Source of the DNA: Macrostomum lignano
Lineage: Eukaryota
Direction: 5' to 3'
Length of the DNA stretch: 64,000 bases
Assembly: GCA_002269645.1 (NCBI GenBank)
Contig: NIVC01000986.1
Location: 1-64,000, forward strand
Position numbers and translations under genes: made by a program. Shown here in pieces: positions 19,791-56,599 of the stretch. The notes under the pieces were generated by a model. The model saw nothing but the letters and a program-made list of their open reading frames with translations. It did no database searches and was not told where the DNA came from. Each line of letters opens with the position of its first letter. Within the stretch, counting starts at the first letter, position 1.

Positions 19791-19869
19791 CGCTTCTACA
19801 AAATATTTCTAAAAGCCAAGTCTTAGGCATTTGCCTCTGCAGTGGTAATCAAACAACTGAAGAGAAGTG

Positions 19870-26223: not shown

Positions 26224-26730
26224 GTTTTGTTACGAGCTAGCTACAAGAAGGCCTTTCATTACACCGATTCAAAAATCAAAATCGGTTCGGAACTTTTCAT
26301 TTCGACGGTTCCGTTTCTAGAATCAGTTCCAGAACCGTGACCAAAATCAATACAGAGATGTCCACTTAGTTTCGGACTTCACCAGTTCCGTATGAGTCGT
26401 AAATAGTCACAATTTGTCCCAAATACTCGCCGAATAATCTAGCACCAGAAGTCGACTATGCAGGCGTTGTGTCGCAGAAAAAAAGAGTTCCTTAGAGAGT
26501 TCTTAGATCACTCCAGAAGCTGATTAATTTGCTTGTAATTTCACTTGTATTTATATACTGCTAAGAACACGGTGTGACGGTTTGAGCTTTTGTAGATCGT
26601 TTCGTGTGCCCTCGTTGTGAAAGTCTTTACAAAGTAAAGTCAGGAAAATGAAAGCAAAGGCGAACATTTGCATTTTATCTTTGATAATACGAAATTACGA
26701 AATTATAATTTATTAGTCAATTTACGCGCG

Positions 26731-26762
26731 ACATGTTTCGACGAACACTCGGCATCTTCAGG
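26731..26762 (-). ncRNA. Minimal hammerhead-ribozyme-like motif in the PLE pseudo-LTR (second copy at 44951-44981 on +, core mutated)
   Basis: CTGAAGA-TGCCGAGTGTTCGTC-GAAAC gives a CUGANGA...GAAA core with a short stem II (one mismatch). PLE pLTRs are known to carry minimal hammerheads. Confidence 0.55.
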
Positions 26763-27141
26763 TAAGGCAATAATATATTTTCAGAGAGCTAGTAAATCAT
26801 TTAAAGTCTAGTAGGTCAAAAAGATTGTAAGAATGGGTAACCGAGTTAGATGGCCCTAAATAAGAGGCAAGCGCATGGGGTCAGAACACCCTTAGATAGA
26901 CACTCGCCCCTCTACCACCAAGTTGGATGTTCATGGTGGGCTTTAGCTGTTTAATGTACAACGCCTCAAGAGTAGACAACTTCAAACTCTGGCGATTACG
27001 ATCGATAGGGTCGAGTTGTCCATCTTCACCCAGGTGTTCATGTCCCTTGCACTTACTGATCAAGCACTCGACGTCAGCCTGGATGTCCCTGGCGGCGGGC
27101 GTGGCGCCAGAACATTAAATACATTAAATTAAATACATATT

Positions 27142-27996
27142 TTGCCTAACATTAAATTCACTGCTGAGATTGGTGACAAAATTTTAAACTTTCTCGATGT
27201 CACTGCTCACCACAATGGCCGCAACCTCGAAACGTCTGTTTATCGCAAGAAAACGTTTACTGGGCTCATGCTCAACTACCGTGCCATTTGCACCAACTCT
27301 TGGAAGGTTGGTTTGATTCGCGGTTTGCTGCACCGGGCTTACCGTGTGTGCAGCTCATGGCTTACGTTCCATAAAGAGCTGACTCAGGTCAAACAGATCT
27401 TCAGATCTAACAACCATCCTGGCGAGCTGATTGACGCTGAAATTAAGGAATTCTTGAACAAGAAAATGAACAAGAAAATTGACACCATGGAAAATGTTAA
27501 GAACGACAGAGTTTCCCGTTCCAATATCATTCAAGTGCCATACATTGGGCTGCCTAGCCTTAGGTTCTGCCGTAAAATAACGGCCATCTGCCATGCCCAC
27601 CTGAACACTAAGGTCTCCCCTGTGCTCTATACTACGAAGGTGTCGCAATACGTCCAAAGACTCAATTGCAGTGTACCGAAAACCTTGTGTGCGGGAGTTA
27701 TCTACAAAGTCTCGTGCGTTGCTGACCAACGCCGGTTTTACATAGGTAAAACCGAAAGGCACCTACACACAAGGGTAAAGGAGCATTGTACAAGAGCTAG
27801 CGCTGTGTACGACCACCTCCTGATGTGCAATCAATTTGCTAAAGTTAGAAATGCTGAGAAATTTGAAATTATCGATCGTAATCGCCAGAGTTTGAAGTTG
27901 TCTACTCTTGAGGCGTTGTACATTAAACAGCTAAAGCCCACCATGAACATCCAACTTGGTGGTAGAGGGGCGAGTGTCTATCTAAGGGTGTTCTGA
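27142..27996 (+). CDS. PLE ORF C-terminal part: RT thumb + GIY-YIG endonuclease
   Basis: IKFTAE...LNFLDV...TSVYRKKTFTG...LLHRAYRVCS; GVIYKVSC...FYIGKTERHLHTRVKEH...LEALYI...N. Confidence 0.92.
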   Translation: MPNIKFTAEIGDKILNFLDVTAHHNGRNLETSVYRKKTFTGLMLNYRAICTNSWKVGLIRGLLHRAYRVCSSWLTFHKELTQVKQIFRSNNHPGELIDAEIKEFLNKKMNKKIDTMENVKNDRVSRSNIIQVPYIGLPSLRFCRKITAICHAHLNTKVSPVLYTTKVSQYVQRLNCSVPKTLCAGVIYKVSCVADQRRFYIGKTERHLHTRVKEHCTRASAVYDHLLMCNQFAKVRNAEKFEIIDRNRQSLKLSTLEALYIKQLKPTMNIQLGGRGASVYLRVF

Positions 27997-28046
27997 CCCC
28001 ATGCGCTTGCCTCTTATTTAGGGCCATCTAACTCGGTTACCCATTC

Positions 28047-28325
28047 AGTAGAAGGCATGAGGGGGCTTCTGGGACAAAATTTTTCACCTCCTCCATAATC
28101 CCATTAAATCCATCTATATTATCCCTGACAGAATCAGAAAAAAGGGGGGTCGCACTCGCTCACAAAACGTCCTCCATAATCCCATTAAATCCATCCATAT
28201 TATCCCCGACAGAATCATGAAAAAGTGGAGGGGTCGCACTTGCTCCGAAAACTTCGAACATAATCGTATTAAATCCATCCATATTATCCCTGACAGAATC
28301 AGTGCATAACAGATGTCCACTAACA
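28047..28325 (+). repeat. Left TIR (279 bp; diverged extension to ~28438)
   Basis: Reverse complement of 44596-44875 except one A6/A7 run; contains three ~83-bp subrepeats. Confidence 0.95.
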
Positions 28326-28445
28326 AATAATCTGCATTCTTCTCCCCACATTCAATCCAAAGCGGCGAAACCAGATCCCAAAGACTTTAAATCCCCTAAC
28401 CCAGGGTCCTTACCCTTTGGAAAAAAATCTAAATTCTCAATAAAA

Positions 28446-28688
28446 ATGTTTCCAGTCGTCTCTCCAGGTTCTTATTACAAAGCGCACGAGCCTAATTACA
28501 AGAGCAAGTACCAATGCAAACTAGAATGCAGCGAGTACATGAGAAAATATTGGCCCGACGTTGATATCAATGTCCCTAATATTAATCTAGCTCTCCAAAG
28601 ACACTGGTTTCATAAGTATGGAGTAACCTACGTAAAATATTACGACAGCTACTATAACTTTGCAGAAATCATTAGGCAATTGCGTTAA
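28446..28688 (+). CDS. Small Tyr-rich Polinton ORF (80 aa), unknown function
   Basis: AAAAATG start context as in other element genes; MFPVVSPGSYYKAHEP... Confidence 0.5.
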   Translation: MFPVVSPGSYYKAHEPNYKSKYQCKLECSEYMRKYWPDVDINVPNINLALQRHWFHKYGVTYVKYYDSYYNFAEIIRQLR

Positions 28689-28810
28689 ACAACCGAAAGG
28701 CCAAAAAGCCGAAAGGCCAAAAGGCCAAAAGGCCAAAAGGCCAAAATCGTTTGCATTCTGGCCTTGCGCGAGGCCGAAATCCTTTGCATTCTGGCCTTCC
28801 CTCGAGACGG

Positions 28811-28867
28811 AATTCTTCCTCGGCTGGGCTCAGTTAAAGTAAAAATCTCTCTCCCCCCACGCGCGCT
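28811..28867. repeat. 57-bp inner inverted repeat (partner 41803-41859)
   Basis: AATTCTTCCTCGGCTGGGCTCAGTTAAAGT(A/G)AAAATCTCTCTCCCCC(C/A)ACGCGCGCT, 2 mismatches. Confidence 0.92.
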
Positions 28868-29346
28868 CTCTCTACCCCCATATCTTTCAAGAGCCTTCCC
28901 AATTCATTGTTAGGAGCGCACAAAATAAACCCTGATCCCGAGCACTCCGCACACCCACCCTCTCTCCCCAAACACCCACCCTCGTCGTCGATCCCCAACC
29001 CCAACTTAGACTTACCAAAAATAACCGCCTTGACTAATTTCCTAGCAATCGACTCACGAAATCCGCTTGAAGCCCCCATATGGTCTAATCTCCTAAGCAT
29101 TTCTTTGTCCCACCGATTCTTCTCCTCAGGAAAATCTCTATACTTAACGTCGTGCCACATGCAGACAGAGTCTAGCTCGTTCACAGGCTCATGACCAGGA
29201 TGTGGATTATTGTTTTTATCTAACTGTATTTCAAGTGGATTCAAAGGCCCGCAATATTTATAGCCGGGAAGTGTCCAGCCTTTGTTTGGATGAGGAAGCT
29301 TTTCTATCAGTCCATGTGAATCTAACTTACCACCAGAGCGTTGCAT
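28834..29346 (-). CDS. Parvovirus-VP1-type phospholipase A2 virion protein
   Basis: LPGYKYCGPLN Ca-loop and EPVNELDSVCMWHDVKY catalytic HD; C-terminal KSKLGLG. Confidence 0.9.
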   Translation of the reverse strand: MQRSGGKLDSHGLIEKLPHPNKGWTLPGYKYCGPLNPLEIQLDKNNNPHPGHEPVNELDSVCMWHDVKYRDFPEEKNRWDKEMLRRLDHMGASSGFRESIARKLVKAVIFGKSKLGLGIDDEGGCLGREGGCAECSGSGFILCAPNNELGRLLKDMGVERARVGGERFLL

Positions 29347-29376
29347 TATTTTATTTTAAATTTTCTTTTTAAAAAA

Positions 29377-30372
29377 ATGACAGATCAGAAACTTAAAAAA
29401 CTCTACTACAGCGACAAAGGATTCTTTGTAGGAAAAAATGCAGTCACCAAACTCGCAGAACTAAGTAAGGAACCAAAAGCTAAAGTAGAAAAGTGGCTCT
29501 CTAAGCAAGCAGTCTACCAAGTCTATTTCCCACCAGTAAAATTTGAAAGGCCCCATTTCAGTATTTATAAACCTAATGAGGCGCACCAAGCAGATCTTCT
29601 GTTTCTCCCCAATGACTCGGGCTACAAGTATGCTCTCACAATTACAGACGTTGCCTCCAGATATAAGGAAGCGAGACCGCTTAAGACGAAGAAGTCAGAA
29701 GCAGTTGCAACCGCACTCCAAGATATTTATAAAAACTCACCCCTTAGTTACCCCCAAATCTTTATGACTGACCCGGGTAAAGAATTCTTTGGGGCAGTCA
29801 AATCCCTTATGGAAAAGAAAAATACAGAGATTCGCTATGGCAGAACTGAGCTCCACAGAGACCAGGCTTTTGTGGAAAGATTCAATCTAACTCTAGCCAA
29901 GAGGCTATTCACTAAGCAGACAGCTGAAGAGCTGAAACTAAAAAGTGGTCAGTACTATTCAAAATGGACAGACCGGCTCCCCACTGTTCTAGAGCAACTG
30001 AACAATGAAGTCACGCGCATGACTGGATTGAAACCATCCCATGCAATTAAACAAGACACTGTCGAACTTAAGTCATCTCATAGAACAGACACCTCAAACT
30101 ACCCTAAGCTTCCAGGAGTTGAATCACCATACATACTGACAAACTCTGAGTTTCTACGCTTTTTATATCTACCTGGAGAGCTAGAGAAGGACACTAAAAG
30201 AAGAGCTACAGATCCATACTTCAGCCTTGATGTACATAAAATAGACAGACATTTTACCTCCGACTCCGGTGACTATTACTTTTTATCTCAAGCCTTTAAC
30301 CCTAAATCCCCCACACGGTCATTCACTAGAGCTGAACTCCTAGTGATACCAGCTGACACGGAAATTAATTAA
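29377..30372 (+). CDS. Retroviral-type (rve) DDE integrase
   Basis: HQADLLF...LTITDVASRY, MTDPGKEF, AFVERFNLTL. The ATG at 29377 is preferred over the TTG at 29341. Confidence 0.93.
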   Translation: MTDQKLKKLYYSDKGFFVGKNAVTKLAELSKEPKAKVEKWLSKQAVYQVYFPPVKFERPHFSIYKPNEAHQADLLFLPNDSGYKYALTITDVASRYKEARPLKTKKSEAVATALQDIYKNSPLSYPQIFMTDPGKEFFGAVKSLMEKKNTEIRYGRTELHRDQAFVERFNLTLAKRLFTKQTAEELKLKSGQYYSKWTDRLPTVLEQLNNEVTRMTGLKPSHAIKQDTVELKSSHRTDTSNYPKLPGVESPYILTNSEFLRFLYLPGELEKDTKRRATDPYFSLDVHKIDRHFTSDSGDYYFLSQAFNPKSPTRSFTRAELLVIPADTEIN

Positions 30373-30388
30373 AATATTAAAATAAAAA

Positions 30389-30835
30389 ATGACAAAGATT
30401 GAAACCAGAACCATCAATAAACTCAATAAAATCATTGAATCAAAGAAACCAGGTCTTATATCAATTAAAGGTATCAAAGTAAAAATCGATCCCACGCAGC
30501 AAATAGTTCAGTGTAATGAACAAAGACACAGCATCACAGATGAAAAGTCAGGAGGAATCCTACCATTAGCAGCTCTTATTCCGATCATTGCAGGCGCTGT
30601 AAGTGCCGCAGGTGGTGTAGCTGGAGGTGTAGCAACTGCTGTTAAAGCTGGTAATGATAGAGCCCACCAGCTTGAATTGCAAAAGATTGCAAGAGACAAA
30701 GGTATAACAATTAAGGCAGGAGAGGGCTGCCCCGATCGTGATGATTGTGAGCATGAAAATTCTGTAAGCAAGTCTGACATTGTCAAAGCCATCATGACAC
30801 TGCACAATGCTGGGTTTACAATAATGCGGATGTGA
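30389..30835 (+). CDS. Core/membrane-active protein with adenovirus pX-like hydrophobic peptide
   Basis: SGG-ILPLAALIPIIAGAVSAAGGVA parallels adenovirus pX MRGG-ILPLLIPLIAAAIGAVPGIA (recalled sequence). Confidence 0.7.
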   Translation: MTKIETRTINKLNKIIESKKPGLISIKGIKVKIDPTQQIVQCNEQRHSITDEKSGGILPLAALIPIIAGAVSAAGGVAGGVATAVKAGNDRAHQLELQKIARDKGITIKAGEGCPDRDDCEHENSVSKSDIVKAIMTLHNAGFTIMRM

Positions 30836-30971
30836 ATGCGGATGTGATGAGGTTTAAAACCCCACTTTATCCAGCTTCATAAACCTAACGCTACTGATAG
30901 GGTGTAGAAACAGTTCAACTTTTCTATCAGGGTGGTCACCCTCAAAAATTTTTTTTATTTTATAGAAAAAA

Positions 30972-33900
30972 ATGCCAAAAGCTAATCCAGCAAAAGATTT
31001 AGTCAACAAATATTTTTCAAAAGGCGTCTCATTTCAAGACAAAAGTAATTTACTAAGAGAAGCATGTAAACAAACGTTTAACACCGACCCTGGTCACCTG
31101 GGAAGCTATGAAAAACAGTTGGAAATCATCAAACAATTAGAATCCAACCAGTATGCGCCTATAAAAAATCCTGCAAAGGAACACCAAGAGAGGAGTCGCA
31201 ACTTAGTTAACAAATACGAAACTCTCACTGGTGAAAAAGCAAAGTACCCACAAAATAAGCAGGAACAAGAGAAATTAGAGCAATTAATCCATTTAAAAGA
31301 GTCGGAGCTTGCCATTGAAGAGATTAATTTTGCACAGAGGAAGTTTACAGAACATTACATAGAGTACACAATCCCAATTAAGGATACCACCGCAAACATC
31401 TACGACTATAAAGACAGCATCCAATCAGTTGTTGATCACACACTCAAAACACGCAAGACCTTTAAACTACAGATATCATTCAAGATTGCGTTTTATATGC
31501 CTGCGAAACCCACTGAGCATCTCGAGTATTACATGACAACAAAGGCAAAGCCATTCACCCCAACAGACACACTGGATCCTTTCCTTCAAGATGTCAATAA
31601 GAAAATTGAAGCGTTTACATCCAGAGGTTCCGGATGGGTCGTGGGAGGGATTCAAAGAGCGACTGTCATGGTCATGAAATATGACCCACTTAAAGCCTCC
31701 TCTTATATAGAGCTCCCGCATAAGCTAGCCGGCAAAAAAGCTTGCATAAATGTTAAAAATAAAGACAATTGCTGTGCCCTATGGGCAGTTCTTTCTGCAC
31801 TTCTTCATGATAGTGTCCCTCACCACCCCGAAAGAACCTCAAATTATCAAAATTATTTCAACTACTATCTCATCGAATGTGAAAAGAAGGGAATCAGGTT
31901 TGACAAAGGAGGCTTGGCGATTTCTCAGATCCCAAAGCTAGAAGAAGTGTTTAATAACAAAATTAGAATCACAGTCTTTGAGTGGAGTGAAAAAACTGAG
32001 ATAGTTCAACTGGTCAGATGTAGCAAAGACGTTTTAGATCCTGAGGGAAAAAGGCGGACTGAAGTGGATCTTCTAGTGATTGGTAATTTACTAGAGGAGG
32101 CTCACTATGTTTGGATTAAAGATCTTTCAAGACTCATTCACAAGCAGTTGAATAATCATCACGAGGCTGTTGCCATCTGCCGCTTGTGCCTTAAGCATTA
32201 CAGTGGACCTGAACGCTTTGAAAAGCTAACAGAGCATGAATTATCATGCGAGGATCACCCAACAAACTGCTCTCTTCCTTCAGCTGAAGAGAAGTATCTC
32301 CGGTTTAAGAACTATCACAAGATGGAGAAGCTCCCATTTGTTGTATATGCTGATTTCGAATGCTCAATCGTGCCGGAAACTCAAGAACAAACTCAAACAC
32401 AAAAACAAACTCAAACTCGAAGACATGTCCCCAATTCAGTAGCATATGCCTTTATTAATACAAAAGGACTTGTTGAGTCTAATTATTTCATTGGAGAGCA
32501 GTGTGTGGAGCAGTTTATTGCCAGAATGTTAGAGTTGCAAAAAGTGATTAGCACCCTTCAACCTGTTCCAATAATGATGACTGAGGAGGATGAACGTAAT
32601 TTCCTATCAGCAACTCATTGCCACATCTGCAGGAAACATTTAACTTGCACTGATGTTAAAAACCCCACCGTTAGGGACCACTGCCACTTTACTGGGAAAT
32701 TTAGAGGTGCAGCGCATAACACCTGTAATCTAAAGCTAAAATCGAACATTCATGATCTAACGATATTTTGTCACAACGCAAAAAACTATGACATGCATTT
32801 AATAGTTGAAAAAATCGGCATGATTCCAGACATACACCTTGACTGCATCGCAGAGAACAAGGAGAAGTTTAAGTGTGTTGATATTAAACAGGATAATTCG
32901 GGTACAGGTAAAATAAGACTGAAGGATTCATATCAATTTCTAGCTGCCAGTCTAGACGAACTAAGCAAGAATCTAAAAGATGAACAATGTACATATACAA
33001 AGATGTTTGCAAGTAAAATTTACAACAGTGATGAATCATTTAAACTCCTGAGAACCAAAGGCTTCTACCCCTATGAAAATATTACTGGGTATCACGTATT
33101 TGAAGAAGGTTTACCACCACAGGAGAAGTTCTTTTCAAAGCTAACAGACTCTGGAATCTCTGACAAAGACTATGAGCACGCGAAGCATGTCTATAATTAC
33201 TTTAATTGTCAAAACTTCTTCCAGTATCACCTGCTTTACCTCTTCACAGATGTGTTTCTGCTGGCTGATGTGTTTGAAACCTTCAGATACACCTGGTACA
33301 CAGCATATGGCCTCGATCCAGCACATTATGTGTCTCTGCCTGCCACTAGCTGGGAATCTTTGCTTAAAATGAAATGGGATCAAGATCCAGATTGGTACAT
33401 TGAACTTCTTACAGACATTGACATGTACAATTTTGTCGAATCGTCAAAGCGAGGGGGATCTCAATTTGCACCATAGATATGCAAAAGCAAACAATCCCTA
33501 CATTGAATCTTACAATAAGGAGCAGCCCTCAAACTACATTACTTACTTGGACGCTAATAATCTCTACGGGTGGGCGATGAGTCAAGATCTTCCAGTTAGA
33601 GATTTTCGATGGCTACCCTCATCAGAATTCAAACAGGACTTTTCATTGGCTGCCATTTATGAGGTTGATGTTTACATTCCACCAGAGCTTCACGACTATT
33701 TCTCTGACTTTCCACCCTTCCCAGAGAACATAAGTGCCCGAAAATAATCGAAACTCCCAATGATAATAATGGAACTTGGCACCTGTCAGGAACAGAAAAA
33801 GAACATACAGAGAAACTAACACAGAATCTAAACAACAAGACACGTTATAAAATCCATTACAAACTGCTTCAGTATTTTATCTCACTTGGTTGTAGGGTCA

Positions 33901-34817
33901 CCAAAGTTCACAGGGCTCTTACATTTACAGAGGAAGCGTGGATGAAACCCTACATTGATAAGAACACCCAGTTTAGGACCAAAGCAACCAACGACTTTGA
34001 CAAGAACCTCTTTAAGTTGGCCAACAACTCTGTCTATGGCAAGACTCTTGAGAATGAGCGGAAAAGAACAAACCTGAAACTTGTTACCTCATCAGAGCCT
34101 GCTGTTATTCAGGCAAATATGTCAAAGCCAACATTCAAAGAACTCCATATCTTTAATAGCTACTTAGGTGTGATCATATTTTACAAAACCAAGGTGACGC
34201 TGCGCAAGCGATCTATACAGGTGTCACTGTACTCGACGAATCAAAACGTCTGATGTACCAGTTCTTCTATGGCATGAAGCAGCAGTACAAGGATAAAATG
34301 AAACTCTTGTACACTGACACAGACAGTTTTATTATGACATTCAAACAGAAGACATTTATCAGGACATGCTGCAGCAAAAAGTTGTTTGACTTGTCTGAGT
34401 ATGATGAATCTTTCAGGACACAGAATGGCGATCAAGTGTTTGACGCACTAACAAGAAAGTGATTGGGAAAATGAAGGACGAGATTGCTGGTGACATAATC
34501 ACTGAATTCATTGGGTTGAGAGCAAAGTCCTATTTTGTAAAATGTGAGTCGTCAGACCCAATTAAAAAATCAAAGGGAATTCCGAAACGTGGTGTAGGAA
34601 GGAAATTAATGAAGCTAAATACAGAGACGCCTTGAATTGCAACAAAAAGACATCACATGAGTTCTCAAAGCTACAATCTAAAAACCATATTATTCACACA
34701 ATTCAGCAAAAGAAGATTGGACTGTCAGGTGCAGATAACAAGAGATTCATTTTTGATGACAATATTAACAGTCTACCGTTCGGGCACTGGAGATTAGGTT
34801 TAGGAGGTGGAGGTTAG
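30972..34817 (+). CDS. Protein-primed DNA polymerase B (terminal-protein, exonuclease and polymerase domains); several frameshifts after 33450
   Basis: Exo YADFE, HNAKNYD, YLFTDVFLL; zinc module CHICRK...VRDHCHFTGKFRGAAHNTCNL; Pol A YLDANNLYGWAM, Pol B KLANNSVYGK, Pol C LLYTDTDSF; C-terminus DNKR...LPFGH. Confidence 0.95.
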
Positions 34818-34900
34818 ATTCGGGCACTGGAGATTAGGAGATTGGAGGTTGGGTTTAGATTTAAGAGAAGTTTAATAAACCTCATAAAAATGACATAAAA

Positions 34901-35280
34901 ATGACGACAAATAACTTTCTTGAAGATTTGGCTAACGAACTGGAAATCCCAACTTTAGAGGAATATTTATGAGGGACACTCTGCCTGATTTTCCTCTAAG
35001 AAAGGAATGCGGCATCATGAACTTTGACACCACCGATAAGCCAGGATTCATTGGGTTTGCTGGGTGATTGATCCGATCGCAAGCACAAGTGTTATTACTT
35101 CGATAGCTATGGGACGGCAGTACCAGAAGAGCTAAGAAATTATATGAAGGGAAAAAATAATAAAAAAATTTATCGCTCAGACTTTATTCTCCAAGGTCTT
35201 AGCAGTGATATTTGCGGTGAGCTGTGCATGATTGCAATACAAAAGACCTACAAGGAAATTATTCTTGCTGTGTTTCATAG
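34901..35280 (+). CDS. Adenain-like cysteine (maturation) protease, frameshifted
   Basis: Across frames: FRGIFMRDTLP...ECGIMNFD...HWVCW...YYFDSYG...Q.LSSDICGELC (His/Asp/Gln/Cys set). Confidence 0.85.
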
Positions 35281-35283
35281 GGT

Positions 35284-35920
35284 TCATTGTGCATTTCTCG
35301 TCGTCCTTCTTGCCGAATTCTTTCCACATAATGTTGAAAAACTTTCTTCATTTTTGTCTGACTCATGTCATCAGTACCGACCATGTTCATTCGAATTGAT
35401 TGTTCATAAAGATCCTGAATGGTTTTGAACTCATCCTCTGAAATGAACTTATCCTCGATTGCCCTTGAAATGTACCCTATGATTGAGTGTGCACCCTTTC
35501 TCTTTTACTTGCTTCCTGTAGCTGCTTTAGTTTTTTTCGCCTGTTTCGCCGCTACTGCTCCAGTAATTGCTGAAATAAGTCCACATGCAGCACCACTGAG
35601 CCGAGCGGGAATTGCGATTGGGGCTGTGATGGCTGGCAACACTGAGACAGCGCAGCAGATCCAGATAGAACAGACACAGATCCTAGAATCATATTGCTGT
35701 AGTCGAAAATTTACAGTGGTTGTCATAGCTTAATTTTCTTTGTGTTGTGGAAAATATTTTTTTCAAGATCATCACGCATTTTTTGAATCTCCACCAGTCG
35801 AAACTGCTGAGAGTTACAAGTAATGACGGGGTAGAGTTTTTGTTGCTCATATTGGGGTGCACTAGGTGCTGTGGGTGCTGTGGGAGCATTCGGATCATAA
35901 AGAGAATTTTGAGCATCCAT
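35284..35920 (-). CDS. Polinton membrane-associated protein, frameshifted
   Basis: MDAQ...KLYP...FRLVEIQKMRDDLEK; hydrophobic VSVLPAITAPIAIP...GLISAITG; ISRAIEDKFISEDEF. I recognise this pattern from Polintons. Confidence 0.6.
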
Positions 35921-36033
35921 TTTTAGAGAATTTTTAAAAAAAATTGACAACTCGTTGGTGGTGGTTGGATTTGTTTTACGTTTAATTGTTTCGTCTGCAG
36001 TTGGCGCCAGCAGGTCTCTTCGAATCTACCTAT

Positions 36034-36828
36034 TTATTTGTCTATGCGCTCCATTCTACACTTGATCTCAAACAAACCGGTTGGCTCACGAAATTTTGGG
36101 TTAGTGGTCAAACTGGTTGGCTCACGAAATTTGTGGTCAGTGGTCAAGTCGGTTGGATCACTTATTTCCCTTGTGGTCTGTGGTGCCTCTTCAACAGTAT
36201 CAATATCAGGAAGATTGTGTACTCCCTCAAGACGACTGATTCTTCTCAACGATTTCTGCCATTCGGTAAAAATTAAATCTAAATAGACTTTAATTGCATC
36301 AAGTCTTTCTTTAATTCTATCATGCAACGCTGTTGACTGGTTCATGAACTCTTCTAAATTATTGACTTTAACTGTGTTGGTTGCGACGTTTTCTTTAATT
36401 CTATCATGCAACGCTGTTGACTGGTTCATGAACTCTTCTAAATTATTCACTTTAGCTGTGTTTGTGAAAACTCCTCCTTCGAGAATACGCATCCGTCTAT
36501 CAGTGGAATTTCCCAGAAGATTAACTGATGATCTCAAGCCGTTGATTAGCGAGACTATCGAAGTTATTTCTGACCTTAGTTCATTAGTTGCGTTTAACAA
36601 CGGCGCATAAAGCTTATCACTTTCAAACTTCTGCCTAGCTACTTTAAGCCTGAGATCTTCCATGTTGATTTGCAACTGGTGCATGGAGCGCTCTAGGGCT
36701 TTCAGTCTGTTTTTATTCAGTTTGATCTCTGGGATCTCTTCATCAATGTTAATGTAGCGCTTGTCAAGGAAGGAATTTGTGAGAGTGCTGTTGCCAGAAA
36801 TGGATTCACCTGCAAAGTTTATCGACAT
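36034..36828 (-). CDS. Coiled-coil protein (candidate fibre/spike), 264 aa
   Basis: Long heptad pattern, a 78-bp internal duplication (TNT.KVNNLEEFMNQSTALHDRIKE x2), 12-aa C-terminal repeats, and an A-rich ATG context. Confidence 0.6.
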   Translation of the reverse strand: MSINFAGESISGNSTLTNSFLDKRYINIDEEIPEIKLNKNRLKALERSMHQLQINMEDLRLKVARQKFESDKLYAPLLNATNELRSEITSIVSLINGLRSSVNLLGNSTDRRMRILEGGVFTNTAKVNNLEEFMNQSTALHDRIKENVATNTVKVNNLEEFMNQSTALHDRIKERLDAIKVYLDLIFTEWQKSLRRISRLEGVHNLPDIDTVEEAPQTTREISDPTDLTTDHKFREPTSLTTNPKFREPTGLFEIKCRMERIDK

Positions 36829-36844
36829 CTTTTAATAGCAAATT

Positions 36845-37644
36845 TTAAATTACAGTTCTTTTTTCTTTGCTGATAATCACAAACTGGTAAGGCTGATTCC
36901 ACTTGTCATAGCAAAGATTAACGAATTCCTCTTGTGAAATCTTTCTGCTTGAGTTTTTTGTTGGATTTATGAAATAGGCAGGCGCAATGACCTCATTGTA
37001 AAATCTTTTTAGCCTGTCCTGTGGAATGGTTGGAAACAGGAGAATCAGATTGCAGTTCCACGAATTGTTTTGTTCGGGAGCTCGAACCAATTCTGTGCAA
37101 TGTAAATTACATTGCAATTGTTATGTCGCCCTCTTGTAAAATAGTTTTCTATCTGCTTCTGTGGGCCTGTCATACAATCATCAAAGACGATCAAATGCTT
37201 TCTCCCCTTTTCTAGCTCATCTGGTTGGGGTAGAAGTTTGGTCTTTGGATCAGCCTGTGGATCTCCATAGGTGAACACTTTAATGTTCTGCCATTTTTCA
37301 TTGTCTTTGAGGTGCTTTGCATATTCAGCAGCTACAATTTCAGGGTTACTGGGAAGGCTCATTTGGTTATTAAAACATGCAATAATGTCCTCTTTGTGCA
37401 GTTTGTTTTGCAATCCAGAAATCAACATTTTATACTCATCTTGATACAGTGTGGGAGAGTAGATGTGCAGAGTGTCATAGTCGATAAAGCCAGGTCTAAG
37501 AAGCATGTTAAAGACTCTGAATGTTTTACCTGAACCTGATGAACCAACAACAATGCATCTGAAGTGACTCGGAATTGACTCGTGATGAGAAAACTTAATC
37601 TGATTACGCGTCCAGTGAGGATTGAAGTCGTTTGAAAAGTCCAT
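36845..37644 (-). CDS. A32/FtsK-type DNA-packaging ATPase, one frameshift near 37070
   Basis: Walker A VVGSSGSGKT, Walker B LIVFDD, YFTRGRHNNCNVIYIAQ. Confidence 0.93.
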
Positions 37645-37680
37645 TTTTTCTATGAAAAAAAAATTTAAATAATAAATAAT

Positions 37681-37827
37681 TTAGATGTGTCATTTCGGGA
37701 CTTAGATGTGTCATTTTGGGACTTAGATGTGTCATTTTGGTACTTAATTGTGTCATTTCGGGACTTAGATGTGTCATTTCGGGACTTAGATGTGTCATTT
37801 TGGGACTTAGATGTGTCATTTCGGGAC
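37681..37827. repeat. 7 x 21-bp tandem repeat between the core-protein gene and the ATPase
   Basis: TTAGATGTGTCATTT(C/T)GGGAC units. Confidence 0.95.
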
Positions 37828-38243
37828 TAGTCTTGTACCCTCGGAAAGTACCCTTTAGTCAAATTTGAAACCACTTCCTTTTTTAATGCTAGCCTCATCT
37901 TCTCATAGACTGCAGGGTCCACACTGTCTGGATTTGGGGCCAATGGAGCCAGCGGGGCCAGTGGAGGCTGAATCTCTTGTTTAGGTGTTACAGTATCCTT
38001 TATCTTTTTGGCTGCTGTGGCTACACTGCCAGCCGCTTCGGCAACGTTCTTGATGTTCTCTTTGTTCTCTCCAATGACCTTAAAAATCTTGGCCCCCTGA
38101 GCGATCAAATCGGCAAGACCGTTCCCTGAGCGTTCTTTTCTTGGATAGTGGCCTGCAGGGAAAAGTCCAGATCCGCGTTTAATGAGATTAAGTTCCTCTT
38201 TGTCGTAGTATTTGTCAATGTCTTTTTCGAAAATAATTGGCAT
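37827..38243 (-). CDS. Small core protein with G-x-G putative protease sites (138 aa)
   Basis: ATG at 38243 in AAAAAGATG context; KRGSG-LF, RSGNG-LA; amphipathic DLIAQGAKIFKVI. Confidence 0.65.
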   Translation of the reverse strand: MPIIFEKDIDKYYDKEELNLIKRGSGLFPAGHYPRKERSGNGLADLIAQGAKIFKVIGENKENIKNVAEAAGSVATAAKKIKDTVTPKQEIQPPLAPLAPLAPNPDSVDPAVYEKMRLALKKEVVSNLTKGYFPRVQD

Positions 38244-38259
38244 CTTTTTAAATAGAAAT

Positions 38260-39453
38260 TTATTTTTTGTTGAACCGCGAAAGCAGAAGCTCTCTCGCCC
38301 TCTTATCGATGTATTTTCTCTCAAGCATTTTATTGAGGATGTTGACAAATTCTTTTCTATTCTCGTCTTTCATTCCGGTCTTTGCCGCTCCTAGAAGAAC
38401 CGCTACTCGCTTGTAGATTTCAGAAATTCCTTTTCCAGTTGAGGGCGGTTGGTCTTGAGGTTGTGGAGTTGGTTGGGCTTGTGGCTGCTGGGGAGGTGAT
38501 GCAAAAGACTGCTCACTTTCAGAGATGGAACTGTCATGTGGTGCCTGTCTTTGTTGAGGTGTGAAAACTCTTTGCTTGATTCTGTTCATTCGATCTGGAG
38601 AGTGTTGTTCTAAGTGTTGCCAATCTGTTGGGTTTTGTTTCTTATATTCAGCTACTTGAGTCGGATCTGCATTTTCCAGTTGCCTGAGTACTTCTGTGAA
38701 ATGTTGCTGCTGCTGTGGTTGTGGTTGTTGTTGCTGTTGTTGTTGTTGTTCTAGATATTTTATGACTTCCGCCTGATCTGGCAAATCGAACCATTGTTTA
38801 AAGTGCTTGTACTTTTTGAATCTAGTCAGGTTGACACCGTTATCATACATAAGTCTCAGGACTTCTGGGGCCTTTAGTATTTCTATATCTCTAGCAAGAG
38901 CAAAAGTCACTAGATCTCTATAGTTCTTTAGCTGTTTGTCCGAGATTCTCTCTTGGTTCTTGGTCATAAAAGTCAGTAAGGTTTCTGTGAAAGGAATGCT
39001 CTTAGTTTCCGAGCCTTTGACAACAGAAATATGTTTCTTATTTATGTCGATATAATATTCCACTGGTTCATTATAAATGTTTTTTCTCCACATACTTATT
39101 CCAAATACATATTTCCCATCATGTTCTACACGCTCTACTGGTCCAAAAATGTTATCTGTCACTTTTAGTTGCTGTTGTGGTTGTGGTTGTTGTGGTTGCG
39201 GCTGTATCTGTGGTGCTTCTGGAATTTTGCCCAAAACCTTTTGCACTTGGGTTTCCTGTATGTCGTCGATAGTTTCTTTGACCTGATCAAAATTTTTCTT
39301 AGCTTCTCCATACCCGGGTTTATGAAACTCTGTGGCTGCTTGGACAAACTCATTGTAGGATTGTTGCTCCTTATTTATTAGCCCGGTAACTCGTTTCTCT
39401 GCTTGTGCTAGCTTCTCCAATTCAGATATCTGCTGTGTACTTTTCCGCTTCAT
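38260..39453 (-). CDS. Conserved Polinton core protein, 397 aa
   Basis: N-terminal coiled coil, DNIFG...YYID module, Gln-rich linkers, C-terminal TGKG-IS...RVAVLLGAAKTG. Confidence 0.65.
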   Translation of the reverse strand: MKRKSTQQISELEKLAQAEKRVTGLINKEQQSYNEFVQAATEFHKPGYGEAKKNFDQVKETIDDIQETQVQKVLGKIPEAPQIQPQPQQPQPQQQLKVTDNIFGPVERVEHDGKYVFGISMWRKNIYNEPVEYYIDINKKHISVVKGSETKSIPFTETLLTFMTKNQERISDKQLKNYRDLVTFALARDIEILKAPEVLRLMYDNGVNLTRFKKYKHFKQWFDLPDQAEVIKYLEQQQQQQQQPQPQQQQHFTEVLRQLENADPTQVAEYKKQNPTDWQHLEQHSPDRMNRIKQRVFTPQQRQAPHDSSISESEQSFASPPQQPQAQPTPQPQDQPPSTGKGISEIYKRVAVLLGAAKTGMKDENRKEFVNILNKMLERKYIDKRARELLLSRFNKK

Positions 39454-39483
39454 TTCTTATTTTATTTTATTTTTAGTTAAAAA

Positions 39484-40770
39484 ATGAACGACCCACTGAC
39501 ACCAGTTTTCTACAAAATTAACAAGCCTATTTTGAGTGATAATAGCACAATCAAAGCGACTCAGGTAAGAGTTCCCAGTCAGGAAAATCAGAATGAAACT
39601 AATCTTGGTCCTGGTCAAACACTGACATTTACATACAATGGATGTTCGTCTTTGGTTAGTGTGCACAGTCTTAAGAGCGGCTTCCATATGACATTTCAAT
39701 TCAAGACAAAGGGTGGTGCGGATGCGGCTCGTGCTAACGTTGACAAGCATGATGCGGATGTGGCTCTGATCAGTAACTTTTGGGCGTACATGTTCAAGGA
39801 GTTTAGTGTATCGAATGGGAGCACTGAGTTGGAGCGAATCGCCAACTTTGGAATTGTCTATGACGCTCATTTTTTGATCGAGAATCCTGATTTTATTCAA
39901 TTGGGAAGTGGTGCGGGTTTTATCGCAGATGAAAAAGAAGGAGACATCAATGACAGTGGCTATAAAAAGAGGAAGAAGAGATACAACTATGCATTGCAAG
40001 GTGCAGATGATGCTGCTAAGAACCCGCAGTATCGGTCTGTTGATGTATTTGTACCATTGAGATTCATGAGTGGATTCTGTAATACATTTAATCGACTGAC
40101 TAGTAACTTTAGCTACACATTTAGACTGACTAGAGATGATCGCAGTAGAGTGTTGTGGACTGGGGCGGACCACACAAGGATGGAGGTGAAGCTAACCGGA
40201 ATCGAGCTGTATTTGGAAGTCATTGAGCCAAAGACTGCACTAAAAGCGGATTATCTTAAGGCAATAGAGAAGGACATTGATGTTGCATACACAGCCTACA
40301 TGTGTCGAGATGAGCGAAACGAAACTAGAACAAACATCTGCATTAAAGAGGGATCATGCAGCAATCCAAGGTATATTATTATTAACATGAGAAACCCAAA
40401 TAGCATTATACGCTACATGCATGAAGACGTGCGGTCCATTCAGCATGAAATCAGTGATAATCTTTACCCTGCACTGCCACAAAATGGAGATTTCAGTCAG
40501 AACAAGATTAGCAAATTTTACAGCGAGTTAGTCGACTTGGCTGTGAAAGAGAACAATGGAATTGCTATCACTGCTCTTCAATATGGAACTCTATATCCGA
40601 TGTTTGGCGCTGATGTGTCTGCCAGACAAATGCCTACTGATAACAGCCCTGTGAATATCGTGACTAACATTGAAAGGACTGCCGCAACACCCGTGGACCT
40701 GTACATTGTCTATGCATTTGAGAGGAAGGTGAAGCTTAACATGATCAACAATTCATCCAGTAAAGTTTAA
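39484..40770 (+). CDS. Major capsid protein (double jelly-roll), 428 aa
   Basis: Size, beta-rich composition, position upstream of the minor capsid gene; LYPALP...DFSQNKISKFY and YGTLYPMFGADVS are typical Polinton MCP motifs. Confidence 0.85.
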   Translation: MNDPLTPVFYKINKPILSDNSTIKATQVRVPSQENQNETNLGPGQTLTFTYNGCSSLVSVHSLKSGFHMTFQFKTKGGADAARANVDKHDADVALISNFWAYMFKEFSVSNGSTELERIANFGIVYDAHFLIENPDFIQLGSGAGFIADEKEGDINDSGYKKRKKRYNYALQGADDAAKNPQYRSVDVFVPLRFMSGFCNTFNRLTSNFSYTFRLTRDDRSRVLWTGADHTRMEVKLTGIELYLEVIEPKTALKADYLKAIEKDIDVAYTAYMCRDERNETRTNICIKEGSCSNPRYIIINMRNPNSIIRYMHEDVRSIQHEISDNLYPALPQNGDFSQNKISKFYSELVDLAVKENNGIAITALQYGTLYPMFGADVSARQMPTDNSPVNIVTNIERTAATPVDLYIVYAFERKVKLNMINNSSSKV

Positions 40771-40793
40771 ATATTTTTTTTATGTGAAAAAAA

Positions 40794-41657
40794 ATGGAAG
40801 CGATTGCTGAAAGACCAAACAACATTGTTTCTCACTCTAAGGAGAGCATTCCTATTACAATAACTGGGCGAATTAATGACTCAAACGGGATATTTGTTGA
40901 AAAATTAGAGCAGGCGATTCGCCTGGATCCAGGCGCTAATTACCATGTCTATCTTAACGACTTCACTGGTTGGTCAAACGTTCCCAATGTGATGGCAGCA
41001 AATAATAAGTTTTATTACAAATGGAAAGGTGCAGCAGCAGACCCTGTGGTATTCCATGTGAGCACGCAAAGTGTGGATACCTACAATAACTTTCTAGAAA
41101 ATGTCTTTACTAAGAGAGGCCATTTTGAGACACCTGATGCGAGTAAGCCAGAGAAGAAACTGTTCCCTGTCAAACTAACCTATGATCTCACTGTAATGAG
41201 AGTGGTCATGCAAGTTCACAAAGATGCGGAGGTTGAGTTTAAAGATGACACTTGGTATAGGGAACTGGGATTCGAGAAGAAAGTTTATAAGGCAGAATCC
41301 GCGGCGCGGACCGCCACTCAAGCATCGGGGACTGTTAAAATGGCCCGGGAAAATGTAAGCGGTTTGTTCTTAGCACCCAATATTGCAGACATTGTAAAGG
41401 GTTTGAATATTCTAATCAGAAGCAATCTCAGTCTTGATTGGGTATTTAAGGGAAAGCGAACGAATATTTTGTACAACATCTCCAACTCTGTAGCTGGAGG
41501 ACAGATGGTGGTAGAGAAACCAAATCCAGTGAAAAGAGTTGTATTGAGTAATAAGGAGATTCATGAGATTGTGCTACAGTTTGAGACTGAAGATGGGGTG
41601 GGTGTTGATTTCAACGGTGAAGAGTTTGTATTGACGTTGATCATTGAGAGAATGTGA
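40794..41657 (+). CDS. Minor capsid (penton, single jelly-roll), 287 aa
   Basis: IRLDPGANYHVYL...WSNVPNV..NNKFYY; ILIRSNL...NILY; IVLQFETEDGVGVDFNGEEFVLTLII. Confidence 0.88.
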   Translation: MEAIAERPNNIVSHSKESIPITITGRINDSNGIFVEKLEQAIRLDPGANYHVYLNDFTGWSNVPNVMAANNKFYYKWKGAAADPVVFHVSTQSVDTYNNFLENVFTKRGHFETPDASKPEKKLFPVKLTYDLTVMRVVMQVHKDAEVEFKDDTWYRELGFEKKVYKAESAARTATQASGTVKMARENVSGLFLAPNIADIVKGLNILIRSNLSLDWVFKGKRTNILYNISNSVAGGQMVVEKPNPVKRVVLSNKEIHEIVLQFETEDGVGVDFNGEEFVLTLIIERM

Positions 41658-42184
41658 GAAAATGCGTTCCCTTTTACCGAGAATAGAGTGGTATGAAAAA
41701 ATGCGCGCATGTGTACTCAAAATCTCTTACCCCATTCTGACAGTTTGTGGGCGTGGGCGTCGCGTGTGTGGGGGAGAGGGGAGTGTGTGTGTGTGTGGGC
41801 GCAGCGCGCGTTGGGGGAGAGAGATTTTCACTTTAACTGAGCCCAGCCGAGGAAGAATTTCCTTGATTGATATTGGCCTTCGCTTCTCTTCTCTCCACAC
41901 AAGTGTACAGTCTTGAGCACACTGGTTTCGGCTACAATTTCTCTTTCCACCATGCTTCTCCTTGGGGGGGGGGGGGTGGGGGGGGTTTGTATTATATGCT
42001 TCTAATAAAGAAATAGGCAGACTGCTGAAAGAAATAGGAGAAATTTGTTTCTAGCGGACGCTCGAACTCGCATCGTATCTTCGTAAGTAAATCCTGACTT
42101 ACTTTAAACCATTTTCTGTAACTTTCAGTTGCTTTTTTAATTCTAAACTATTTAAAACACTCTACTTATATATTTGTAGACAAA

Positions 42185-42823
42185 ATGTTTAATGCAACTA
42201 CAGCCAGAATCACCATGCAAGATCTCACAGGTTTTATCGATTCCATCGATCAATTTATTGTTGAGGAGCATAAGGATGACGTTAAAGACATGGTTCGAGA
42301 ACTCTGGGAAAGATTATCTGAAGATGAAGAAAGGCATCTGCGAGTCAGTGAAGAAATGAAAATACGGAAGATGAAGGAAAGAGCCACGGATGTATTCCAT
42401 AAACTTCGAAGTTCGCTTCAATATGAGAACGAGCAAGCGGCTCAGGCAGAGGTAATTAGTGAGGGGGAGTTAGAAGCCATCTGCAACGACATCACAAACC
42501 GAGGTCCTGTTGACAATGGGGTGCCAGAACTGCATGAAAACCTGGTTAAGCAGGGCCAAATTTACAACCGGCGAACTTGGGTGGCAGCATTTTTTCTTGG
42601 AAAAGTGTATGACCAATTTATTACGAGGCATCAGCAGACATTAACAAGCCTGGCGGAACTGTTCAGCGTGAGTTACTACTACGTGCAATCCCGCCATAAC
42701 ATCTATACTCTGGTGATCGAGCTTCCACGGCTCCGCTTTTGCTCTGTTTCGGCTACATTCCTGCATGACAACTCTAGGACGATTCGGAGCGAAAGGTGGT
42801 GGCAAACGGATGCAGCAGATTAG
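42185..42823 (+). CDS. Polinton cargo gene (212 aa; HTH-like segment), apparently spliced
   Basis: Open frame with helical content and LTSLAELFSVSYYYVQSR. Upstream GTAAGT (42083) ... TTTGTAG (42179); downstream GTGAGT (42891) ... TTTTTGCTGCAG (43518). Confidence 0.6.
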   Translation: MFNATTARITMQDLTGFIDSIDQFIVEEHKDDVKDMVRELWERLSEDEERHLRVSEEMKIRKMKERATDVFHKLRSSLQYENEQAAQAEVISEGELEAICNDITNRGPVDNGVPELHENLVKQGQIYNRRTWVAAFFLGKVYDQFITRHQQTLTSLAELFSVSYYYVQSRHNIYTLVIELPRLRFCSVSATFLHDNSRTIRSERWWQTDAAD

Positions 42824-42895
42824 CTAGATCCGACTCCCCCAACAAGACCTCCATCGGCGGCTGAACTTCAGGGCCTTCTCGATGCTTACTGTGAG

Positions 42896-43440
42896 TTATC
42901 TGTGTGAAATGAAGGAAAAAACCGTGTGTATTATTGGCCCACCCAATATGTGTGAAATGAAGGAAAAAACCGTGTGTATTATTGGCCCACCCAATATGTG
43001 TGAAATGAAGGAAAAAACCGTGTGTATTATTGGCCCACCCAATATGTGTGAAATGAAGGAAAAAACTGTGTGTATTATTGGCCCACCCAATATGTGTGTC
43101 TTGTGCTAAAAATAGCCAGAGCTTGCTGTGTAAAAAAGCACGCGACAGTGTGGAATGTGGAACGTGGGGGGGGAGATTTTCTCAACTGTAGCTGGACCAA
43201 TATGTGAGGTGGTGGAAAAACCTTGTGTATTATTGGTAGAACCAATATGTGTGGGACAATGGAAAAACCTTGTGTATTATTGGTAGAACCAATATGTGTG
43301 GGACAATGGAAAAACCGTGTGTATTATTGGTAGAACCAATATGTGTGGGACAATGGAAAAACCGTGTGTATTATTGGTAGAACCAATATGTGTGGGACAA
43401 TGGAAAAACCGTGTGTATTATTGGTAGCACCAATATGTGT
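42896..43440. repeat. Two related minisatellites (4 x 48 bp; ~5 x 46 bp)
   Basis: Shared core CCAATATGTG...GAAAAACCGTGTGTATTATTGG. Confidence 0.92.
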
Positions 43441-43729
43441 CCTGCGCTCTCCCCACTGCCTCTCTTTTATAAAAATATAGTACTAATGTGAATACTACCA
43501 CTCAACTTTTTGCTGCAGATGATGAAGCTGGCCAGCCTGCTGCTGTTGGAGACGGCAAGCAGCTATGGATGACTGAGCTCTTTTGAACAACTTAGCATTG
43601 ATATCATGGACTTAAAGTCGCTAATCTAAATACACTATGGTTGTAATTTTTAAGCCTCTTCTAACTTCAAAGCCTGCTTATTAAAATAAATGATAACTGA
43701 ATCAACATATTCCGGTTTTTTTGTTAATT

Positions 43730-44410
43730 GACGAAGCTTCGTAAACTCTTTAATGAAAAAGCAGAAAATGCTAAAATATATTTTTAACCTAATGCTAGTA
43801 AAAGTAGTAGTTCAGAGTGAAAATTCTAAGCGACAGAAAATTTCAACTTACGAAGCTTCGTAAACTCTTTAATAAGAAAGCAGAAAATGCAAAAATATAT
43901 ATTTAACCTACTGCTAATAGAAGTAGTAGTTCAGAGTGAAAAGCATAAAATGCTAAAGTATATTTTTAACCTACTACTAGTAGAAGTAGTAGTTCAGAGT
44001 GAAAATTTTAAGCGACAGAAAATTTCAATTTATGGAGCATTGTAAACTCTTTAATGAAAAAAGCGTAAGATGCTAAAATATATTTTTAAACTACTGCTAA
44101 TAGAAGTAGTAGTTCAGAGTGAAAATTTTAAGCGACAGAAAATTTCAATTTATGGAGCATTGTAAACTCTTTAATGAAAAAAGCGTAAGATGCTAAAATA
44201 TATTTTTAAACTACTGCTAATAGAAGTAGTAGTTCAGAGTGAAATTTTAAGCGACAGAAAATTTCAATTTACGAAGCTTTGTAAACTCTTTAATGAAAAA
44301 GCATAAAATGCTAAAAAATATTTTTAACCCACTGCTAATAGAAGTAGTAGTTTAGAGTGAATATCTTTAGCGACAGAAAAATTCAATTTACGAAGCTTCG
44401 TAAACATATA
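43730..44410. repeat. ~120-bp AT-rich tandem repeat, ~5-6 copies, next to the right TIR
   Basis: Repeated GTAAACTCTTTAAT...AGAAGTAGTAGTTCAGAGTGAAAATTTTAAGCGACAGAAAATTTCAA. Confidence 0.9.
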
Positions 44411-44595
44411 AAAGACAATCAAGATTCAGAGAAAATTTAGATTTTTTCAAAGGGTAAGGACCCTGCGCTGATGATTTAAAGTCTTAGGGATCTGGTTTCA
44501 TGTTGCGAATTGAATGTGGGGATAAGAATGCAGATTGTTTTCTGATTGTTTCGAAGATGCTATGGGTGGATGTTGGTGTCAATGAACATAACAGG

Positions 44596-44875
44596 TGTTA
44601 GTGGACATCTGTTATGCACTGATTCTGTCAGGGATAATATGGATGGATTTAATACGATTATGTTCGAAGTTTTCGGAGCAAGTGCGACCCCTCCACTTTT
44701 TCATGATTCTGTCGGGGATAATATGGATGGATTTAATGGGATTATGGAGGACGTTTTGTGAGCGAGTGCGACCCCCCTTTTTTTCTGATTCTGTCAGGGA
44801 TAATATAGATGGATTTAATGGGATTATGGAGGAGGTGAAAAATTTTGTCCCAGAAGCCCCCTCATGCCTTCTACT
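44596..44875 (-). repeat. Right TIR (280 bp; diverged extension ~44430-44545)
   Basis: Reverse complement of 28047-28325. Confidence 0.95.
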
Positions 44876-45953
44876 CCATTCTTACAATCTTTTTGACCTA
44901 CTAGACTTTAAATAATTTACTAGCTCTCTGAAAATATATTATTGCCTTGCCTGAAGTTGCCGAGTGTTCGTCGAAACATGTCGCGCGTAAATTGACTAAT
45001 AAATTATAATTTCGTAATTTCGTATTATCAAAGATAAAATGCGAATTTTCGCCTTTGCTTTCATTTTCCTGACTTTCCTCAAACGGTGTACCTTACCTGG
45101 ACTTTACAAAGTAACTATTGGTATTTGATTATTCTATTTAATTGGACATCTGCACGTATTGTTTGACACGTTAAGCAGATTAAGTTTACTCTCTTTTGTT
45201 TAAATCTTTATACTCCAATTTCAAATTACTATAAAAACGTTTTGAATTTCGCCTCCAAGCTGGTGGTCCGGTTTTGTCGCTCGTCGCTCTTGACTTTGTG
45301 CTGGCTCAAATATTTATAGGGAAATATATTGAATACTCGTGTTCGACAGTATTTCGACAGCTCCCTGTAATTCGCCAAGTTTACTACTACTTCTTCATAC
45401 TGATGAGGACGCACTTTTTTTCCAAATCCCGCGCTAGCACATGGGCTCTAAACTTACTAGCCTACTAACAGTGGGCAATGGGCATTTTTATCCTGTTTCT
45501 GCGAATTGTCATAGAATCTATACTAGATATAATGTTTGGTCATACTAGTAGTCATAATAACATAGGCGCAGCTTTTTGGGTCAGGAATCATCGCTTACGA
45601 AGCTGGTCTGACAGCCACCTGCGCCTCACTCAGTGTTGAGGCGGGCGCCAGATGGTCTGAGGGGGTGCGAATGATAGCTTTTTTCTCATCATTTTGACAG
45701 GCCATCAAGATTTATGAGGTCAGGGCCTATTGTTCGTGTTCACTCAAGCGTGTGACAGTTTTGACAGCTATGCGTTTTACCCCTAAAAGTACTTTGGGAT
45801 TAGCAATTAGCGATTTCTCTTCATTATCTTCACTTTCTATTTACTCGTAATAAGAGCTTTCTAATGTATATTTTCTCATTAATTTTTGTCAATTCTACGC
45901 GAAAAGTCATAAATCATTTTGTTGCGATTTTGATTGATTTATGGCCGCACCTG

Positions 45954-46339: not shown

Positions 46340-46519
46340 CCTGCTAGCTATCTGCGAAGCAAGGGACAACTAAAACTACCAGGAAGCGAAACAAGCCAAA
46401 GCATGGTGAAAAAAAGTTGGGGGCTCGTTTGAAAGCAGTGTTCTATGGCCGTTCCAACGGCAACTCTTGAGTCTAAAGAGGTGTGAGGGCAAATTAAAAG
46501 CCCTCAACTCTTGTGCGAC

Positions 46520-50215: not shown

Positions 50216-50280
50216 GAAAGTAGGCTGTGAAAGTTGGTCTTCGTAGTGCATGGATACTGAGCGGCCCCTCCAGTGCTTCA

Positions 50281-56599
<6,319 letters not shown>

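Follow-up and report, generated by a model that had tools for sequence, protein, structure and literature searches.

The first 64,000 nucleotides of contig NIVC01000986.1 in the Macrostomum lignano assembly GCA_002269645.1 (forward strand, hereafter the window) contain a 16,829-bp element at positions 28047-44875 that has the structure of a Polinton, a virus-like DNA element also called Maverick. The element begins with AGTAG (28047) and ends with CTACT (44875), and the 6-bp sequence CCATTC directly adjoins both termini as a target-site duplication (TSD), a coincidence expected for a given 6-mer with a chance of about 2.4e-4. Its GC content is 40.3 %, compared to 47.4 % for the remaining window. 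It interrupts a pseudo-long terminal repeat (pseudo-LTR) of a Penelope-like element. The features that define its ends, its repeats and its insertion site are the following:

26633-27007, minus strand: the Penelope-like element's 5' pseudo-LTR, inverted, carrying the empty insertion site with a single CCATTC
26723-26761, minus strand: minimal core motif resembling a hammerhead, within the inverted arm, a pattern match only
27133-27996, plus strand: 5'-truncated Penelope-like open reading frame (ORF) with a C-terminal GIY-YIG endonuclease (Pfam PF01541, E 1.9e-6; NCBIfam TIGR01453, E 1e-4)
27870-28046, plus strand: 3' pseudo-LTR, portion left of the interruption, 177/177 identical to the inverted arm
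28041-28046: left TSD, CCATTC, abutting the element on the outside
28047-28325, plus strand: left terminal inverted repeat (TIR), 279 bp, with internal 84-bp subrepeats and a degenerate extension to about 28440
28811-28867, inverted copy at 41803-41859: 57-bp internal repeat, both copies where outward-reading genes have their 3' end
37681-37828: 21-bp tandem array, 7 copies
42898-44405: non-coding subterminal tandem arrays with units of 48, 47, 63 and ~120 bp
44596-44875, minus strand: right TIR, counterpart of the left
44876-44881: right TSD, CCATTC, abutting the element on the outside
44876-45079, plus strand: right part of the interrupted pseudo-LTR, 198/204 identical to the inverted arm

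When the left and right flanks of the element are joined with one CCATTC, they align to the inverted arm without gaps, 6 of the 376 columns being substitutions. Because the inverted arm keeps the empty site with a single CCATTC, the TSD is real and the Polinton arrived second. Integration duplicated 6 bp and took place in a pseudo-LTR that already existed, at a point 50 bp beyond the Penelope stop codon. Nesting of mobile elements is routine and is useful here mainly as proof of the TSD and of the order of insertion.

The two TIRs are equal in 279 of 280 columns, the sole gap reflecting the length of an A run, and are followed by a degenerate repeat extension of about 110 bp that must predate the insertion. 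The absence of substitutions (0/279 bp, with a 95 % upper bound on divergence of 1.1 %) indicates that the element is young. We recognised Polintons/Mavericks by a size of 13-25 kb, TIRs of 100-1500 bp, a 6-bp TSD and AG...CT termini, and the element has all four; its size and TIR length also lie within those of published Mavericks (PMC8097293). An earlier note on this DNA had proposed a young Polinton with exact termini, a 6-bp TSD and near-identical TIRs, nested in a Penelope pseudo-LTR, and these claims stand.

We also considered dating the Polinton through the pseudo-LTR arms and rejected it: all 6 differences are one-sided, falling in the stretch that the Polinton displaced (44876-45079 against 26633-26836) with the near part identical over 177 bp (Fisher 0.03), and the arms were maybe unequal at birth. 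The asymmetry could stem from gene conversion between the arms, which lie close together, or from the use of two templates. The 57-bp internal repeat is a purine-rich motif whose two near-identical inverted copies are joined by a degenerate copy at 43166-43192. Each copy lies at a gene's 3' end or beyond it, the gene pointing to the nearer TIR, and our guess is that the repeat may be a shared 3'-end signal.

The interrupted host element is assigned to the Penelope-like elements by its C-terminal GIY-YIG endonuclease and by its inverted pseudo-LTRs, which cover the 3' end of the ORF. It resembles the endonuclease-bearing members in its 5' truncation, its C-terminal GIY-YIG domain and its inverted pseudo-LTR at the 5' side, and the hammerhead-like motif in the pseudo-LTR, here a pattern match only, would be a further likeness (PMC8557442, PMC3846280). 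A second such motif in the right pseudo-LTR part (44951-44989) is one base off the core pattern. The Rfam scan of 25000-47000 returned no hammerhead, one chance match being the only one, and folding of the monomer was not hammerhead-like (z 0.2-1.4). Unlike those elements, this copy lacks most of the reverse transcriptase (RT), and neither a TSD nor a tail was found. The C-terminal RT part that is left was recognised by eye only, and a profile search for a Penelope-type RT gave no match to it.

Inside the Polinton lie genes for replication, for integration and for building a capsid:

29377-30372, plus strand: rve (DDE) integrase, 331 amino acids (aa), open (Pfam PF00665, E 3.8e-9; prototype foamy virus (PFV) integrase, E 0.005)
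30972-34817, plus strand: protein-primed DNA polymerase B (pPolB; PF03175, E 1.8e-7), with five frame changes
34901-35305, plus strand: putative adenain-like maturation protease, motifs over three frames, end uncertain
36845-37644, minus strand: A32/FtsK-type packaging ATPase (Pfam PF04665, E 1.3e-6; PHROG terminase, E 8.8e-6), with one frame change
39484-40770, plus strand: major capsid protein (MCP) of the double-jelly-roll type, 428 aa, by fold (Sputnik MCP, E 1.4e-18)
40794-41657, plus strand: single-jelly-roll penton (minor capsid protein), 287 aa, by fold, uninterrupted compared to its relatives

The earlier note had counted six core genes. Of these six, by which Polintons/Mavericks are recognised, profile and fold searches recover five (integrase, pPolB, ATPase, MCP and penton), and the protease was called by motifs only. 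At about 34901-35305 we recognised by eye, spread across three frames, motifs with His, Asp, Gln and Cys, ordered as we take them to be in an adenain-like protease; the pieces are short and gave no protease family match in Pfam, PHROGs or PDB. The profile of the MCP had 0 matches among PDB sequences, and a fold search gave its identity instead: a model built from 54 sequences (predicted local distance difference test, pLDDT, 90.4) matches the double-jelly-roll capsid proteins of virophages and giant viruses. For the penton, a model from 13 sequences (pLDDT 65.2) has the mavirus penton as best match (Z 9.7, root-mean-square deviation 7.5, 206 aligned); further entries for pentons or capsids stand in the five rows after it. 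pPolB carries an insert like endonuclease VII, together with Cys/His columns of vOTU type. The Cys and His columns precede the exonuclease, are invariant in 119/119 homologs and are present here, which is consistent with an active vOTU; the OTU identity of this N-terminal domain is presumed, not shown by a fold.

Eight accessory ORFs accompany the core genes:

28446-28688, plus strand: 80-aa ORF carrying a single LxCxE motif, no family match
28834-29346, minus strand: parvovirus-type phospholipase A2 (PLA2), 170 aa, no fused pX (Pfam PF08398, E 4.3e-13)
30389-30835, plus strand: pX-like core protein, 148 aa (Pfam PF05829, E 4.5e-7)
35259-35920, minus strand: two-helix hydrophobic (two-transmembrane, 2-TM) gene, called by eye and by hydropathy (weak 2-TM Pfam match, E 0.009), broken in at least 3 places
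36034-36828, minus strand: 264-aa coiled-coil-like ORF, open, SMC-like compositional matches below cut-off
37827-38243, minus strand: 138-aa ORF, no family match
38260-39453, minus strand: 397-aa Q/P-rich ORF, no credible family match
42185-42823, plus strand: 212-aa ORF, no credible family match

The leader is AT-rich and closes with an A run in 14/14 of these ORFs (6 core and 8 accessory), compared to 5/513 other ATGs, with the caveat that this start-context criterion was fixed after the genes were seen. Small ORFs at 41662, 37819, 35419, 42882 and 39870 were not counted: each either overlaps a real gene or starts in a context unlike the shared one. The accessory set agrees with the at least seven ORFs of the earlier note, and PLA2 and pX bear out its entry-type proteins. 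Matches of PLA2 to VP1 of adeno-associated virus (AAV) are weak (E 0.016 or above). The host-like cargo of the note is unsupported: no accessory ORF matches a host family above cut-off in Pfam, PHROGs or NCBIfam, where only sub-threshold compositional matches were found, and the ORFs have a GC content of 0.39-0.47 and the viral start context. In the ESM Atlas the 212-aa ORF had weak matches and the 397-aa ORF none, a result that shows neither absence nor novelty. The single LxCxE is of a kind occasionally expected by chance among ~2,500 residues.

To place the element among its relatives we compared the capsid and polymerase genes. The MCP has 9 matches among 4,255 candidates, 43-77 % identical; an exhaustive search gave 106 matches, of which the long ones outside this group are 22-33 % identical. 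One relative (P0143) is 95 % identical and has an internal deletion. The penton has 12 matches among 503, 55-64 % identical. These MCP and penton relatives (P0001-P0009, P0130-P0143) align over the full length of the proteins, and all are on short contigs. For pPolB the best among the 120 matches listed are 30-44 % identical, and the 20 of these 120 with named sources come from arthropods, molluscs, corals and a crinoid, with no flatworm. The earlier note had suggested a pPolB phylogeny as a check; in a tree with 119 homologs the window sequence is the longest branch. We did not use this tree for classification given the long branch, the absence of a supported named sister and the lack of an outgroup. 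The few close MCP and penton relatives, the distant pPolB matches and the longest pPolB branch suggest that the lineage is thinly sampled in its capsid genes, within a kind that is well known.

Indeed, more than 20,000 integrase-linked pPolB genes have been reported in 960 genomes (10.1101/2023.08.22.554363, PMC10748475), and Polintons are known in corals (PMC11131425), a lizard (PMC3014272) and a planarian (PMC8532177). We found no relevant paper in a literature search for Macrostomum and polinton, and six flatworm names are absent from the accessible part of the adintovirus supplement. The element differs from vertebrate Polintons in its end motif, AGTAGA instead of (AGT)2 or (AG)3, in a gene order that departs from their two-module layout, and, compared to Polintons/Mavericks generally, in having three core genes broken as assembled.

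Several features recall the Alpha PolB class of the adintoviruses, a family now named Eupolintoviridae (PMC12451622). The shared genes are a PF03175-type PolB, an rve integrase, an FtsK-like ATPase, hexon, penton, a parvovirus-type PLA2, pX and, towards the left end, a small ORF with LxCxE (PMC8502044). The 80-aa LxCxE ORF resembles the 'Oncoid' class of PMC8502044, for which a single motif is a weak indication. Unlike the fused PLA2X described in PMC8502044, PLA2 and pX are here separate genes on opposite strands; the fusion is an accessory hallmark of the Alpha class and not a family definition. Also unlike adintoviruses, the element has no gasdermin-like, IAP or Bcl2 match. The N-terminal domain of PolB, if it is OTU-type as presumed, would be another likeness.

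What the earlier note overlooked is that the copy is not intact as assembled. Its 834-aa ORF is the front of pPolB only, and 84 full-length relatives (picked by length from 129 proteins) run on across five frame switches, placed by a frame-aware profile alignment near 33480, 33740, 34200, 34440 and 34600. The aligned path contains no in-frame stop, and 4/5 frame changes have the same sign. By eye, we also found about three breaks in the protease (34950-35100), one frame change in the ATPase near 37060 and three or more breaks in the 2-TM gene. All breaks lie within 33.5-37.1 kb, and three of the six core genes (pPolB, protease and ATPase) are affected. The copy was described as complete; this holds for the gene inventory and not for coding integrity, and judged by PMC8097293, where uninterrupted core ORFs, TIRs and a 6-bp TSD make a copy 'intact', the assembled sequence does not qualify. 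Programmed frameshifting was rejected as an explanation, given five shifts within 1.1 kb of one gene plus those in three other genes. Taken as assembled, the copy could integrate or make capsid proteins and could not replicate, package or mature alone.

One explanation for the breaks is that they are local small-indel errors of the assembly, and we consider this the likelier origin, with real lesions retaining a substantial chance. Of a coding span of 14 kb, 3.6 kb hold all of the about 12 breaks, a range with a probability of 3e-6 (0.005 if six are counted). The broken part of pPolB keeps 46/48 conserved columns, compared to 63/72 in the open part. Under neutral decay with 2-10 substitutions per indel, 4-21 TIR substitutions are predicted and 0 are seen. 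For comparison, a neighbouring decayed Gypsy element has 3 in-frame stops and 3 frame changes, compared to 0 stops and 5 frame changes, four of them of one sign, in pPolB. Furthermore, short-read polishing is unreliable in repeats (PMC8812927).

A number of observations weigh against assembly errors. The breaks are judged from the assembly sequence itself, and those outside pPolB are by-eye calls made without homologs, in the case of the protease for a gene without database support in Pfam, PHROGs or PDB. Clustering inside pPolB alone is marginal (0.03), and its lack of stops is weak evidence by itself (chance of 0.1-0.6 under neutral decay); one stop in the 2-TM gene is possibly in frame. The pPolB breaks are not enriched at homopolymers, the longest runs there being 2-3 bases compared to a background of 69 % at 3 or more. 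Within the broken zone the 264-aa ORF stays open, elsewhere in the window a 9.4-kb host ORF is open, and 5/6 of the tandem arrays checked hold a constant unit length.

The lack of homopolymer enrichment, together with a long host ORF and most window arrays free of length errors, speaks for the alternative that the element is the same and the breaks are real. It would then be a young defective copy, its centre damaged or recombined from a defective sister, that was mobilised with help in trans. Genomic Mavericks are mostly defective (PMC8097293), and defective relatives occur, as the internally deleted MCP of P0143 illustrates. This alternative, which we regard as plausible and yet fall short of favouring, has to account for conserved columns without an excess of substitutions (46/48), for a pPolB without stops and for TIRs without substitutions; an indel-only burst is unlike ordinary decay.

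It is also conceivable that the centre is an assembly mosaic in which related Polinton copies were collapsed, so that the ends are real and the middle is not one molecule. The breaks are grouped in one segment, near-identical relatives exist and assemblies are error-prone in repeats (PMC8812927), but both junctions, the TSD and the empty site are concordant, pPolB is colinear end to end with 84 homologs and the gene order is coherent, making a mosaic improbable. We give equally little credence to an intact inducible provirus with captured host genes, for which the intact MCP, penton and integrase, the entry-type PLA2 and pX, the one LxCxE and the host cargo reported in nematode Polintons (PMC11131425) could be cited, but which is countered by the three broken core genes, by accessory ORFs with viral GC content and start context and no host-family match above cut-off, and by an LxCxE that chance may explain. 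Inducibility would require that the breaks are errors, or a helper copy.

Taken together, these results indicate that the element is very probably a full-length, recently inserted Polinton (a polintovirus provirus) that by chance hit an older Penelope-like copy, truncated at the 5' end, in its 3' pseudo-LTR, and whose breaks are likelier assembly errors. From what is known of the family, its rve integrase would make the staggered cut that yields the 6-bp duplication, and pX would condense the DNA. An excised linear genome would be copied by the protein-primed terminal protein (TP)-vOTU-exonuclease-palm polymerase, the ATPase would drive packaging into a double-jelly-roll capsid of MCP and penton, the protease would mature the particle and PLA2 may aid membrane passage at entry (PMC11071308, PMC8502044).

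The rest of the window holds host genes and other mobile elements. On the plus strand, 3151-12594 is one open frame of 3,147 aa that has no Pfam or PHROGs match and a weak filamentous-haemagglutinin repeat match (E 0.008); it looks like a long beta-rich repeat protein. An intronless N-acetylglucosamine (GlcNAc)-transferase I gene (MGAT1; Pfam E 3.5e-70) lies at 24224-25642 on the same strand, with a diverged, fragmented inverted duplicate upstream (14343-14461, 15913-16233 and 16247-16440). On the minus strand we found the decayed Ty3/Gypsy element (~19300-23243), with stops and frame changes and a gag containing a 45-bp in-frame tandem array; an RNase H fragment at 14751-15557, probably the end of a non-LTR retrotransposon; and a 496-aa tyrosine recombinase with DUF3504 at 53067-54557, as in Crypton-type elements. 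Numerous unrelated tandem arrays with 12-42-bp units occupy 49575-52060, 55271-55963 and 59180-63405, and short inverted-repeat pairs at 18629-18928, 46362-48028 and 52086-52854 are maybe miniature inverted-repeat transposable elements or small DNA transposons.

Virion formation by animal Polintons was still open in PMC8097293 and is indirectly supported by coral expression data (PMC11131425). A test of particle formation would benefit from a copy that is young and intact and whose host is tractable, and the Macrostomum copy fits this purpose only if its breaks are artefacts. If the breaks are real, it represents one more lineage in a family found in hundreds of genomes. Alternatively, the breaks may be assembly errors and the provirus intact and very recent, from a polintovirus capsid lineage that is distinct, has hardly been sampled and keeps PLA2 and pX as separate genes, a combination that we judge possible if rather unlikely. 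If true, the locus with its clean empty-site marker would be a tractable place for asking whether animal Polintons make particles and still move.

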